Assembly (NCBI GenBank): GCA_964642565.1
Contig: CAZXPK010000002.1
Coordinates: 130-64,129 of the forward strand
Length of the DNA stretch: 64,000 nucleotides
Source of the DNA: an uncultured Anaerolineaceae bacterium
GTDB taxonomy: Bacteria; Chloroflexota; Anaerolineae; Anaerolineales; UBA4823
Direction of reading: 5' to 3'
Shown here piece after piece: positions 3,630 to 64,000 of this stretch. The notes below the pieces were generated by a model. That model searched no databases. It saw nothing but the letters and a program-made list of their open reading frames with translations, and was not told the origin of the DNA. The position numbers were made by a program, and so were the translations under genes. How positions within the stretch are numbered: the stretch's first letter is position 1; each line of letters begins with the position of its first letter.

Positions 3630-4661
3630 TTATTTATAGCGGATGCGGGGGTCAAGCCAAGCGTAGGTTACATCAGCAATGATCTGAAAGATAATCACCG
3701 CTACAGCGATCATCATTAAGATACCCATTACCACTGCAGTATCCGAGCGTGAAACATGATCCAGGAATAAGCGGCCCATGCCAGGCCAACCGAAGATGCG
3801 CTCGGTGACAATCGCTCCCCCCAACAAGAAGGGTAAATCTAATGCGACGAGAGTGACGATGGGCAAGGCGGCATTCTTGAGTGCATGAATATAGATAACT
3901 TCTGGGTGTGGTAGACCCTTGGCTTTGGCGGTGCGGACGTAATCCTGGTTCATCACTTCCAGCATTGTGCTGCGGATGTAGCGGCTATATCCAGCAACAA
4001 AACCAAAGGAAAGTGTGGCTACCGGTAGAACCATATGCCAGGCCACCTGCGGAGGGGTCTGACCAACTTCAGGATCAAACATGCCCACGGTTGGAAGGTA
4101 TGGTATCCCCCACTTTTTGAAACTCACTGCGAAAATATACATCGCCAGCAAAGCAAAGAAGAACACCGGCATCGAATAAAGTATAAAGGTCGTTGCTGTG
4201 ATGACATTATCTGCAGTAGTATATTGGTGTAAGGCTGAGTAGATACCGATTAGCAAGGCAGCAAAGATAATTATCACTTCAGCGGATACCATCAGCAGCA
4301 AGGTGTTAGATAAACGTTCGCCAATCACCTTGGTGACTGGCTGGCGGTTGACCAGCGAGATGCCCCAATCGCCGCGCAGTACTCCCTTGCGCGAGCCTGC
4401 AGTCTCCGCCACCCCGTCGCCATCCAGGTCAGTCTTCGTCCAGTCATTGCCGACCAGCCAATAAATATATTGGACAAGAACAGGTTTATCCAATCCAAGC
4501 TGGCGTGCCAATCGGATGCGGTCCTCCGGTTTAGTCACCTTGCGCCCACCCATGGTTGCCAGGGGGTCACCCATGTTCTGCATCAATATGAACAGAACCA
4601 AGCTGATAATAAATAGCAGTGGGATAGCTTGCAGCAGCCGGCGGATAATATAGCGAGTCAT
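3630..4661 (-). CDS. Peptide ABC transporter permease (OppB/DppB type)
   Basis: Typical N-terminus MTRYIIRRLLQAIP and EAA-loop region TAKAKGLPHPEVIYIHALKNAALP. The start is placed at the ATG at 4661 (AAAGG 6 nt upstream). The longer ORF start at 4706 lies inside an intercistronic hairpin. Confidence 0.9.
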   Translation of the reverse strand: MTRYIIRRLLQAIPLLFIISLVLFILMQNMGDPLATMGGRKVTKPEDRIRLARQLGLDKPVLVQYIYWLVGNDWTKTDLDGDGVAETAGSRKGVLRGDWGISLVNRQPVTKVIGERLSNTLLLMVSAEVIIIFAALLIGIYSALHQYTTADNVITATTFILYSMPVFFFALLAMYIFAVSFKKWGIPYLPTVGMFDPEVGQTPPQVAWHMVLPVATLSFGFVAGYSRYIRSTMLEVMNQDYVRTAKAKGLPHPEVIYIHALKNAALPIVTLVALDLPFLLGGAIVTERIFGWPGMGRLFLDHVSRSDTAVVMGILMMIAVAVIIFQIIADVTYAWLDPRIRYK

Positions 4662-11652: not shown

Positions 11653-11725
11653 GCCACCGTAGCTCAGCCGGTAGAGCAAGCGTTTCGTAAACGTTAGGTC
11701 AAGGGTTCGATTCCCTTCGGTGGCT
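11653..11725 (+). tRNA. tRNA-Thr (anticodon CGT)
   Basis: Manual cloverleaf of 73 nt: acceptor GCCACCG/CGGTGGC, D arm GCTC-AGCCGGTA-GAGC, anticodon arm AGCGT-TTCGTAA-ACGTT, T arm AAGGG-TTCGATT-CCCTT. The 3' CCA is not encoded. Confidence 0.93.
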
Positions 11726-60968: not shown

Positions 60969-62177
60969 ATGCCTGAATTTCAATTCATTCCTGAAAAACT
61001 CCCAGAATTTCCCAATTTTATTGATTTACCATGGAAGCTTGAGCTCGATGAATGGACTAAAGATGAAATTCGTTTGGAAGAGGTCCAACATGGAATCTCG
61101 CGCCATCCGGTTGTTTTTGTTAATTATGATGGTTCGCTTTATGTGATCAAAGAACTCCCCCAGAATATTGCACGAAAGGAATATGAAATCCTTTCTTATA
61201 TGCAAGAGCACAGCCTTCCTTGTGTAAAACCGGTAGGTTATGCTAAGGTTATGAGAAAAACAGGTGTGTCTAGCATTTTATTTACCCGGTATCTTGAAGC
61301 ATCAATACCGTATCGCTATTTATTTATTAACAATGCGGTGGACCGCTTCCAAACTCATTTATTAGACGCCATCTCAGGGTTATTAGTCCAGCTGCATTCA
61401 AACGGTTTTTATTGGGGAGATTGCTCGCTCTCCAATATATTATTTCAGCGCGATGCAGGTGCTCTACAAGCGTATCTGGTTGATGCTGAGACAGCAGAAT
61501 TTCATCTTCCCCGCCTCTCACCCATGCTACGTTATCATGACCTCGAAATCATGCAGGAAAATATACTCGGAGAGCTAACTGAGATCCAGACAGATGAGCA
61601 TCTATCTCTAAGTTACCCAATACAGGAAACAGGTCCATATATTCAACAACGCTATCGAGGATTATGGGAGGAAATTACCCGTGAAGATGTGTTTACCCAA
61701 AATGAACTCTACCGTGTCCAGGAACGAATCCGGGCATTGAACTCACTAGGCTTTTCGGTAAAAGACATTGAGCTTAAAAACGAAGACCATGGCAATATCC
61801 TTAAATTACGAGTTTTTGTTTCAGATCGTAATTTTCATCGCAATCAATTAATGGAAATTACTGGTTTATTCGCAGAGGACAGGCAAGCTCAACAGATTAT
61901 TAACGAAATTTATGAGCTCAAAGCTAATTTTTCCCAGGCAGGAAATCCGAACATATCCATTCAGGCGGTTGCCTACCATTGGCTGGAACATGTTTACAAA
62001 CCGGTGACTGAACAATTAAATTCTATTATCAAAAATACTTCGCACCCTAAATACAATGCGGACCCGATTGAAATGTATTGTCAAATCCTCGAACACAAGT
62101 GGTATCTATCGGAACGCGCTCGACACGATGTTGGCCACCTGGCAGCTGTTGAGGATTATATAAAGCTATTCAGCTAG
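60969..62177 (+). CDS. Protein-kinase-like fold protein with C-terminal DUF4032-like domain
   Basis: 402 aa. The N-terminal half resembles the Kdo/RIO kinase-like fold (YVIKELP, LHSNGFYWGDCSLSNILF, YLVDAETAEF). The C-terminus has the ILEHKWYLSERA motif that I associate with DUF4032. Confidence 0.6.
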   Translation: MPEFQFIPEKLPEFPNFIDLPWKLELDEWTKDEIRLEEVQHGISRHPVVFVNYDGSLYVIKELPQNIARKEYEILSYMQEHSLPCVKPVGYAKVMRKTGVSSILFTRYLEASIPYRYLFINNAVDRFQTHLLDAISGLLVQLHSNGFYWGDCSLSNILFQRDAGALQAYLVDAETAEFHLPRLSPMLRYHDLEIMQENILGELTEIQTDEHLSLSYPIQETGPYIQQRYRGLWEEITREDVFTQNELYRVQERIRALNSLGFSVKDIELKNEDHGNILKLRVFVSDRNFHRNQLMEITGLFAEDRQAQQIINEIYELKANFSQAGNPNISIQAVAYHWLEHVYKPVTEQLNSIIKNTSHPKYNADPIEMYCQILEHKWYLSERARHDVGHLAAVEDYIKLFS

Positions 62178-62193
62178 ATAATCTTATAAGACG

Positions 62194-62220
62194 CACAGCC
62201 AGGTATCATACCTGGCTGTG
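62194..62220. terminator. Bidirectional stem-loop terminator between the convergent DUF4032 and trpB2 genes
   Basis: CACAGCCAGGT-atcat-ACCTGGCTGTG forms an 11-bp perfect stem. Confidence 0.7.
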
Positions 62221-62237
62221 TAATCGTTTACTCACCT

Positions 62238-63611
62238 TTATGCCGGGGTCATTACTTTCGGTAGATGCTCTAAAGAAGTTTTTATTGCCTCCTCCGGGTA
62301 TTCGTAATCCTCCAATTTTCCACTGTGATACGCCTGGTAGGCACTCATATCGTAGTCACCATGACCAGACAAATTGAATAGGATGATGCGTGGCTCACCC
62401 TTATTTTTCGCCTCGAGAGCTTCGTCTATGGCTGCACGAATCGCATGAGCAGACTCTGGCGCAGGAATGATTCCCTCTGTTCGAGCAAACTGAATCGCAG
62501 CTTCGAAGGTTGCCAGCTGAGGAACAACGATGGCTTGTATGTAGCCAGCATTATATAACGCACAGATCGAGGGAGCCATTCCATGGTAACGTAATCCTCC
62601 CGCATGGATGGGTGGGGGTATAAAATCGTGACCAAGTGTATACATTTTTACAATGGGTGCCATTCGTGCTGTATCGCCATAATCAAATGCATAAACACCC
62701 TTAGTTAATGAAGGAGTCGCCTTTGGTTCTACTGCCAGCAAGCGGGTGTGCTTCCCATTCGTCAGATTTTGTTGTAAGAAGGGATATGCGATACCAGCGA
62801 AATTTGATCCGCCACCCACACACCCGATGACAACGTCTGGATATTCGCCTGCTAAATCCATCTGCTTCAACGCTTCCTGGCCAATCACAGTTTGATGCAG
62901 TAACACATGATTTAACACTGAACCAAGGCTGTACTTCTTCGCCCCACCTGATTTTACTGCCACCTCTACAGCCTCAGAGATAGCTATCCCAAGCGATCCT
63001 GGGCTGTTCGGATCAGTTTTGAGGATGGATTTTCCATAACCGGTATGTTCAGTTGGGCTAGGATATACCTTAGCTCCATAGGTTTCCATGAGATAACGCC
63101 GATATGGTTTTTGGTTATACGAAACTTTGACCATATAAACTTCCAGATTCAAGTCAAAGAATCTACATGCCATGGCCAATGCAGATCCCCATTGACCTGC
63201 ACCGGTTTCAGTTGCCAGGGATTTTGTCCCAGAAATTTTGTTATAAAACGCTTGAGCCACGGCGGTATTGGGTTTATGACTACCTACGGGAGAAGTTCCT
63301 TCATGCTTAAAATAAATATGTGCAGGTGTATCCAATAGTTTTTCCAAGCGTCTTGCCCGGATCAATGGTGTCGGACGCCATAATTTATAGATTTCCCGTA
63401 CTTCTGATGGAATCTCAATATAACGTTCTGTGCTAACTTCCTGTAGGATCAGTTCCATTGGAAAGAGCACTGATAAGAAATCCGGCGTGACTGGTTCAAA
63501 CGTCTGTGGATTAAGCACAGGTGCCGGGGTTACCGGATTATCCGCATTGATGTTGTACCAAAATTTAGGAAGATCCGATTCATTGAGTAAAAATCTTGTT
63601 TGGTCAAACAT
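62238..63611 (-). CDS. trpB2: TrpB-like PLP enzyme (tryptophan synthase beta chain, type 2)
   Basis: 457 aa with the long TrpB2-type N-terminus, the PLP-lysine motif [15 protein letters not shown], and GGGSNFAG. An AAGGAGG SD lies 6 nt upstream of the ATG. No trpA is adjacent. Confidence 0.9.
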
Positions 63612-63637
63612 TTCAACCTCCTTATGGTTTTTGTCTT

Positions 63638-63981
63638 AAAACAAATACGCGCTCATCCTTTGGGGACGAACGCGCTAGGCCCGTGGTGCCACCCCGGTTA
63701 AGCAGACTTATTGATTAACAAAAAATCCCGTTATGATGCAACGGGAGATAATAGCCAGCTTCACTCTATTCAGATACGGTCTTGATTAGACGATATCTTT
63801 TGCCATGCTAACGGTGGCATCTCCGGCGTAGGCTACTCCTGGAAATTCCCAACTAGTTTCGCCTTGCGACTCTAAGGTCCATTCAGCTATACCGTACGGG
63901 CAAGATTCTCATCTATCCTTGCTCTCTGTGCCGTCGTGTTAAGGCTTACTCGTCCTCTTCAACGTCATTAATTATTTAGTT
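63638..63981 (-). promoter_or_regulatory. T-box leader (tRNA-Trp specific) with intrinsic terminator, controlling trpB2
   Basis: Read on the minus strand. The Stem I distal region has the AG-bulge CACAGAGA and distal loop AUAGAUGAGAA. The specifier loop 3' side is GAA-UGG-A (UGG at 63881-63879). The T-box sequence GGGGUGGCACCACGG lies at 63681-63700. The terminator CGCGUUCGUCC-ccaaa-GGAUGAGCGCG plus UAUUUGUUUU lies at 63674-63638, and its 5' arm overlaps the antiterminator 3' arm. A TATAAT -10 box lies at 63993-63988. Confidence 0.85.
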
Positions 63982-64000
63982 TGTCGAATTATATGTGTTA

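Follow-up and report, generated by a model that had tools for sequence, protein, structure and literature searches.

A T-box leader predicted to place a stand-alone trpB2 gene under tRNA-Trp control in Anaerolineales

The stretch of DNA considered here, 64,000 nucleotides (nt) of contig CAZXPK010000002.1 from an uncultured Anaerolineaceae bacterium (hereafter, the window), carries close to its end a minus-strand gene, trpB2 (62238..63611), which encodes a TrpB-like, pyridoxal phosphate (PLP)-dependent enzyme of 457 amino acids. It is preceded on the same strand by a long structured leader (63659..63971) that matches the T-box riboswitch family over the full length of its model. An earlier note, made from the letters of the DNA, had described this leader as a T-box that senses tRNA-Trp and controls a monocistronic, stand-alone trpB2. 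The analysis presented below leads to the same view, namely that a class-I, transcription-attenuating tRNA-Trp T-box very probably controls a monocistronic trpB2, and it places this gene within a wider set of tryptophan genes that share the same type of leader in the lineage.

The assignment of the gene product to TrpB2 is based on profile scores and on solved relatives. The translation reaches 718 bits with NF009057 and 641 bits with TIGR01415, both TrpB2 profiles (cut-offs of 366 and 519 bits, respectively), and 154 bits with the canonical trpB model TIGR00263, which is under the cut-off of 392. The closest structures in the Protein Data Bank (PDB) are those of S. solfataricus TrpB2 (6hul_B, 4qys_B and 6hte_B, 413-468 bits), with TrpB1 at about 135 bits, and the translation contains the GSHKPN motif of the PLP-binding lysine. 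No other trp gene was found anywhere in the window by tblastn with TrpE, TrpG, TrpD, TrpC, TrpS and TrpA queries, and nothing related to trp lies within 10 kilobases (kb) downstream of trpB2, as the earlier note had stated of trpA and the other trp genes.

The gene appears to be transcribed from a promoter of its own. A -10 hexamer, TATAAT (63988..63993, minus strand), is invariant in an alignment of six sequences; as 29 nt separate the leader from the end of the window, the -35 element falls outside and only the -10 is visible. At the homologous position, the five close relatives all present the perfect consensus TTGACA-17-TATAAT. On the 3' side, a GC-rich hairpin of 12 base pairs (bp), without a clear U-tract (62194..62220; the region folds at -24 kcal/mol), separates trpB2 from a convergent gene. 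From the promoter in the relatives, the 3' hairpin and the convergent gene it follows that trpB2 stands alone as a monocistronic unit under a promoter of its own; the earlier note had likewise described it as monocistronic and stand-alone.

The whole window was scanned with Rfam at curated thresholds, which returned two matches: a tRNA (11653-11725) and the T-box leader (63971-63659, minus strand). The latter matches RF00230 with 95.7 bits (E 9.6e-20) over model positions 1-219, without truncation, the gathering score of the family being 93. The former, on the plus strand (68.8 bits), is the sole tRNA gene in the window and has the anticodon loop UUCGUAA of a tRNA-Thr(CGU). In the covariance-model alignment of the leader, Stem I (63869..63965) includes the K-turn region, the specifier loop, an AG bulge with the sequence AGAGA (63927-63923) and the distal loop, GAUGAGAA, which was identified both from the alignment and by reading the sequence. 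The specifier codon UGG, for tryptophan, occupies 63879..63881; GAA (63884-63882) stands on its 5' side, and on its 3' side come A 63878 and, directly after it, the closing helix CCUU. The leader also contains Stem II, a Stem IIA/B region with the F-box CCGUUA (63809..63814), and Stem III (63700..63761), whose outer helix is formed by the pairing of AAGCUGGC (63761-63754) with GUCUGCUU (63707-63700) and encloses an insert of 46 nt. An extra linker stem, outside the Rfam consensus, was observed between Stem IIA/B and Stem III (about 63775-63800 of the window, minus strand). It encloses a variable hairpin and pairs AGAUAU with GUAUCU in the window and GGGUAU with GUACCC in relatives, an apparent compensatory change.

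The T-box sequence itself, GGGGUGGCACCACGG, lies at 63695-63681 and contains a UGGC bulge (63691-63688) that is complementary to the 3' end G73-C-C-A of the tRNA. According to the structure line of the covariance model, the antiterminator (63662..63695) consists of helix A1 (GGGG/CCCC), a 7-nt bulge and helix A2 (ACGGG/UUCGU), and its folding energy is -6.6 kcal/mol. An intrinsic terminator (63638..63675), recovered by terminator scan and by folding, comprises a 12-bp hairpin (63675-63647) and the U-tract AUUUGUUUU (63646-63638); with this terminator formed, the 60-nt 3' segment reaches -27.4 kcal/mol, far below the value of the antiterminator. The terminator draws on 63670-63664, the segment that also supplies the antiterminator with its 3' strand. 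Only one of the two structures can therefore form at a time, and by default the leader is 'off'. The Shine-Dalgarno sequence AAGGAGG (63617..63623) takes no part in the terminator helix and lies 5 nt upstream of the ATG; control is therefore transcriptional. With a score above the gathering threshold, a Stem I that has its codon and purine, AG bulge and distal loop, a UGGN bulge, and antiterminator and terminator helices that cannot coexist, the latter with a U-tract, the leader is a T-box by every sequence-level criterion of the family. The covariance-model alignment thus upholds the elements listed in the earlier note, including the specifier loop GAA-UGG-A, with UGG and no other triplet at the specifier position.

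The specificity of the leader can be read at both ends of the predicted tRNA contact. By direct count, practically every full-length related leader retains GAAUGG. As for the variable base of the UGGN bulge, 68 leaders from genomes carry C and 6 carry U, and those from metagenomes divide into 105 with C and 5 with U; among the matches listed, this amounts to 173 C, 11 U and no purine in 184 leaders. In bacterial tRNA-Trp the discriminator is G73, which is also the major identity element (PMC12135181), and pairing of the C or U of the bulge with G73 is thus consistent with bacterial tRNA-Trp. The earlier note had argued in this way from the single C of the window, and the larger set of leaders agrees with it.

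The association of the element with trpB2 is widely conserved. The closest TrpB2 proteins (at most 94% identity) and all 80 genome loci collected belong to metagenome-assembled genomes of Anaerolineae/Anaerolineales. The T-box core motif was found upstream of trpB2 in 74 of these 80 loci, and a covariance model spanning Stem III to the T-box recovers the element ahead of this gene in at least 75 of them, the loci that lack it being mostly contigs that end at the gene. The gathering score of RF00230 is exceeded in 8 of the 17 loci scanned, and others remain just under the threshold (for example, locus L015 at 85 bits) because of their long insertions. Nearly all the leaders have a terminator hairpin and U-run behind the T-box; 138 related leaders with this structure were counted among the matches listed, with a median of -20.8 kcal/mol. 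Tandem T-boxes were found in none of the loci examined, each leader having a single one; a second 'T-box motif' located 1.3 kb upstream in L015 was rejected, as Rfam finds only one T-box there. With more than 150 leaders across Anaerolineales, the wiring of TrpB2 to uncharged tRNA-Trp would be a widely conserved feature of this order.

The same lineage of T-boxes is not limited to trpB2. A scan of metagenomes with a pattern built from the flanks of Stem III and the T-box core yielded at least 120 contigs and, among the matches listed, almost all of them have a UGG specifier. The first sizeable gene downstream encodes TrpB2 in at least 67 contigs, TrpS in at least 28 and TrpE in at least 11. 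In the TrpS class, trpS is often followed by an optional AAA ATPase gene and then by trpB2; operons of this kind, with an AAA/ABC-type ATPase of about 250-270 amino acids between trpS and trpB2, were observed behind the T-box in loci L093, L103, L156, L165 and L194. In a further metagenome locus, L155, the complete operon trpE-G-D-C-F-B1-A (minus strand, about 7320-260) lies behind a T-box of this lineage, and in L157 a TrpE-TrpG-TrpD fusion of 1076 amino acids was seen behind another. The identities of trpE, trpG, trpD, trpC, trpF and trpS in the metagenome loci were confirmed by NCBIfam, and the leaders of these regulon members were confirmed as T-boxes by Rfam, with 86-107 bits. In this lineage, tRNA charging, the canonical pathway and TrpB2 are thus all under one family of Trp T-boxes. 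Given that the same T-boxes also head trpS and trpEGDCFBA, TrpB2 belongs to the tRNA-Trp regulon, and the T-boxes of Chloroflexota make up a coherent Trp regulon. The earlier note had raised the question of a second Trp T-box on the canonical trp operon, and in relatives such as L155 one was found.

The most distinctive feature of the leader is located within Stem III. The Rfam alignment requires an insertion of 43 nt in the loop of this stem, and the insertion contains a terminator-like hairpin, UCCCGUUG-CAUCA-UAACGGGA (63746-63726), followed by six U residues (63725-63720); the element as a whole (63720..63746, minus strand) was detected by terminator scan and by folding. The hairpin has 8 bp and a folding energy of -10.2 kcal/mol (z -3.4). 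Under a definition that requires 5 bp or more, including 3 or more G-C pairs, and then a run of 4 or more U, such a hairpin is present in 142 of 186 related leaders among the matches listed, as compared with 1.3 in shuffled inserts. In the relatives listed, its median values are 8 bp, -11.4 kcal/mol and U6 (range U4-8), which is about half the stability of the true terminator (medians of -11.4 and -20.8 kcal/mol, respectively). Its loop, (G)CAUCA(C), is conserved among relatives, and since the hairpin is seen alike in trpB2-, trpS- and trpE-linked leaders, it is a trait of the T-box lineage and not of one gene. Over 77 leaders, two-sided changes were found in 7 of the 8 pairs and 88% of the cells are paired; the observed covariation score was reached by none of 500 shuffles, and pairing collapses when the partner columns are slid. 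These pair counts come from a covariance model built to realign Stem III and, as the alignment is fitted to the structure, they lean towards the model.

The outer helix of Stem III behaves differently on its two strands. In the same realignment it is paired at 88.5% over the 77 leaders (helix 1), and its 5' strand GCUGGC (63759-63754) is invariant, with the 3' partner drifting to G-U pairs or mismatches in the absence of compensation. GCUGGC includes the same UGGC as the T-box bulge, and its invariance, together with the uncompensated drift of its partner, makes it a possible transient docking site for the tRNA during a pause. By analogy with other T-boxes, in which Stem III has been proposed mainly as a pause site (in B. 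subtilis glyQS, pauses occur at 138, 178 and 207), the embedded hairpin with its U-tract is most likely a programmed pause of the RNA polymerase before the T-box sequence is transcribed. The broader proposal, that the hairpin and U-tract act as a lineage-specific kinetic checkpoint (either a pause or a leaky first terminator) and that GCUGGC may serve as a transient dock for the 3' end of the tRNA, is put forward tentatively, as a possibility that we rate as more doubtful than not. The conserved Stem III insert could provide a natural model of how pausing is programmed into the T-box decision.

From these elements, the following sequence of events can be proposed, in which the elements themselves, their conservation and covariation and the make-up of the regulon are observed, and the response to tRNA, the pause and the substrate of the enzyme are inferred. 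Transcription would start about 10 nt upstream of the leader, from a sigma-70-type promoter of its own, and the UGG specifier in Stem I would read the CCA anticodon of tRNA-Trp. The Stem III hairpin would pause the polymerase ahead of the decision point, giving time for tRNA binding. If the tRNA is uncharged, its G73-C-C-A end would pair with UGGC and stabilise the weak antiterminator, allowing read-through into trpB2; if it is charged, the more stable terminator (63675-63647) and its U-tract would form and transcription would stop. TrpB2 would thereby be produced under tryptophan limitation and, in the lineage, would be co-regulated with trpS and the canonical trp operon. The presence of a stand-alone TrpB2 in a tRNA-Trp regulon is regulatory evidence for tryptophan supply, and the composition of the regulon supports this role, which the earlier note had proposed from direct tRNA-Trp control and which is strengthened by the trpS and trpEGDCFBA operons headed by the same T-box lineage. 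The chemistry of the enzyme is most plausibly, by analogy, the condensation of indole with serine or O-phosphoserine. As cited in other papers, TrpB2 enzymes are described as having high affinity for indole (Hettwer and Sterner 2002) and as depending on O-phospho-L-serine (Busch et al. 2014), and the enzyme of T. kodakarensis as having roles in both biosynthesis and indole salvage (Hiyama et al. 2014). An 'indole salvage' role of the TrpB2 of the window, also suggested in the earlier note, may be considered on the basis of this biochemistry of other TrpB2 enzymes.

Several observations weigh against this account, and they concern in turn the family assignment, the tRNA, the role of the enzyme and the Stem III insert. 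The RF00230 score exceeds its threshold by just 2.7 bits, a slim margin that results from the penalty on long insertions. ARAGORN found no tRNA-Trp gene in the window or in the 200 loci fetched. The string GAAUGGA also contains AUG, and the specifier could then be read in another frame, as methionine, or the leader could sense a different tRNA; this alternative is hardly credible, as the model alignment sets UGG immediately 5' of the loop-closing purine and helix, the C or U of the bulge demands G73, the discriminator of bacterial tRNA-Trp, and all the gene classes behind this T-box lineage (trpB2, trpS and trpE-A) are specific for tryptophan. The level of control can be questioned as well. 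Translational T-boxes occur outside Firmicutes, and those of actinobacterial ileS sequester the Shine-Dalgarno sequence; the leader of trpB2 could in principle act likewise on translation. The competing helix, however, carries a U-tract in the window and in 138 related leaders among the matches listed, and the Shine-Dalgarno sequence (63623-63617) sits 24 nt past this helix and is unpaired with it, which makes translational control very improbable.

As regards the enzyme, the roles of TrpB2 are debated in the literature, and, with neither trpB1 nor trpA in the window, either 'salvage' or 'main synthase' is conceivable. TrpB2 could be the principal beta-subunit, or the maker of another beta-substituted amino acid that the T-box merely links to the tryptophan status of the cell, and the co-transcription of trpB2 with trpS in many relatives can be cited in favour of such a view. 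Against it stands the related contig L155, with its complete T-box-controlled trpEGDCF-B1-A operon, which agrees with the 'trpB2_o' pattern, in which a species has a trpB1 within an operon as well (Merkl 2007), and a function other than indole salvage is accordingly regarded as improbable, though less so than the two alternatives above. The greatest weight among the rivals, still well on the unlikely side, is given to the reading of the embedded hairpin as a working intrinsic terminator. Its GC-rich stem and immediate U-tract are the signature of a real intrinsic terminator and not merely of a pause: the stem is GC-rich at its base, U4-8 follows at once, the structure is conserved with covariation, and its tail, UUUUUUGUUAA, is similar to that of the true T-box terminator. 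Most transcripts would then end at about 63720 and release an RNA of about 260 nt with Stems I-II, possibly a decoy for tRNA-Trp, with leaky read-through to the rest of the leader. A search by eye for a structure that competes with or relieves the embedded hairpin found none, which counts against both readings. The stability of the hairpin is about half that of the true terminator, a sensor would be pointless if an efficient constitutive terminator sat upstream of its decision, and there is precedent for pausing at Stem III; for these reasons, a programmed pause is the preferred interpretation of the insert.

Some features of the surroundings complete the description of the locus. The convergent neighbour of trpB2 (60969-62177, plus strand) encodes a protein with DUF4032 and a Kdo/WaaP-type kinase domain, and beyond it lie genes for Usp, an ABC1 kinase, a thioredoxin-reductase-like protein, malate/lactate dehydrogenase and citrate synthase. 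The synteny of the DUF4032/kinase gene with trpB2, Usp and the ABC1 kinase is kept in close relatives (L001/L002). In five close relatives, the 5 kb upstream contain nrnA-like, truB, ribF, thyA and folA genes.

Two types of small open reading frames (ORFs) were observed in related loci, in the region between the T-box terminator and trpB2, and were counted over 176 related leaders among the matches listed; both are absent from the window and from its five closest relatives. An acidic small ORF of 47-80 amino acids occurs in 38 of the 176 leaders, before trpB2 or trpS (for example, L015 4740-4982, L006, L027 and L057), with the motif ..SLPAxQV..EQ.. and a C-terminus of the form F-[IV]-P or RGLA-[FL]-[IV]; no family was found for it in Pfam or NCBIfam. 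A mini-ORF, M-x(3-6)-F-H-P-P-UGA, with its own GGAG, occurs in 31 of the 176 leaders, always with UGA as the stop (31 of 31), 52-206 nt upstream of the trpB2 start and only before trpB2. Examples are L048 (MFPLSFHPP, whose ATG comes 384 nt downstream of the T-box motif at 4494), L052, L058 and L071. Its codons vary synonymously (TTT/TTC for Phe, CAT/CAC for His, and all four Pro codons), and this free third-position variation indicates that the mini-ORF is translated as a leader peptide. Its Pro-Pro-UGA ending recalls the Pro-UGA junction of TnaC, at which free tryptophan blocks RF2 (PMC8450073), and it is a candidate leader peptide, specific to trpB2, for termination stalling or for UGA readthrough, one that may add a second layer of sensing for this gene in the relatives.

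When compared with the T-boxes on which RF00230 is modelled, such as those of B. subtilis tyrS and glyQS, the leader of the window shares Stem I with its K-turn, specifier loop, AG bulge and distal loop, Stem II, Stem IIA/B with the F-box, Stem III, the UGGN bulge, and competing helices followed by a U-tract. It differs from them in a Stem III insert of 25-55 nt with a terminator-like hairpin and U-run, in the covarying linker hairpin between Stem IIA/B and Stem III, and in its host, which belongs to Chloroflexota and not to Firmicutes. The trp operons and trpS genes of Firmicutes are preceded by tandem or single Trp T-boxes with a UGG specifier. The specifier is the same in the leaders described here, as are the targets, genes of tryptophan biosynthesis and charging, whereas these leaders have one T-box each and their commonest target, among the matches listed, is a stand-alone trpB2.

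Within Chloroflexota, Wels et al. (2008, PMC2494555) had already listed T-boxes in Dehalococcoides upstream of trpE and of a 'trpB-like' gene, and the association between T-box and trpB2 is for this reason not new in kind. The Dehalococcoides cases agree with the present one in phylum, amino-acid specificity and kinds of regulated genes, and differ in that Anaerolineae is another class of the phylum. Among the papers searched, none joins 'trpB2' and 'T-box' by those names, the wording of Wels et al. 2008 being 'trpB-like'. By itself, the finding leaves the view of TrpB2 unchanged, and its value resides in the breadth of the conservation and in the picture of the regulon. The enzyme belongs, by profile and by solved relatives, to the same family as the TrpB2 proteins of T. 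maritima, S. solfataricus (TrpB2a/TrpB2i) and T. kodakarensis, and the gene shares with 'trpB2_o' (Merkl 2007) its location outside any trp operon.

For the Stem III insert, the closest parallels are found in two other systems. Stem Sa of the staphylococcal glyS T-boxes, a lineage-specific insertion in the discriminator domain (PMC9177973), is likewise a conserved, lineage-restricted extra hairpin of that domain, but it is located in the antiterminator/terminator and not in Stem III, and no U-tract follows it. The pause of B. subtilis glyQS at position 138 also precedes the antiterminator and is thought to allow tRNA binding, whereas the pause proposed here is deduced solely from the conserved hairpin and U-run. 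The Stem III insert may make this lineage of Chloroflexota a structural variant of the T-box.

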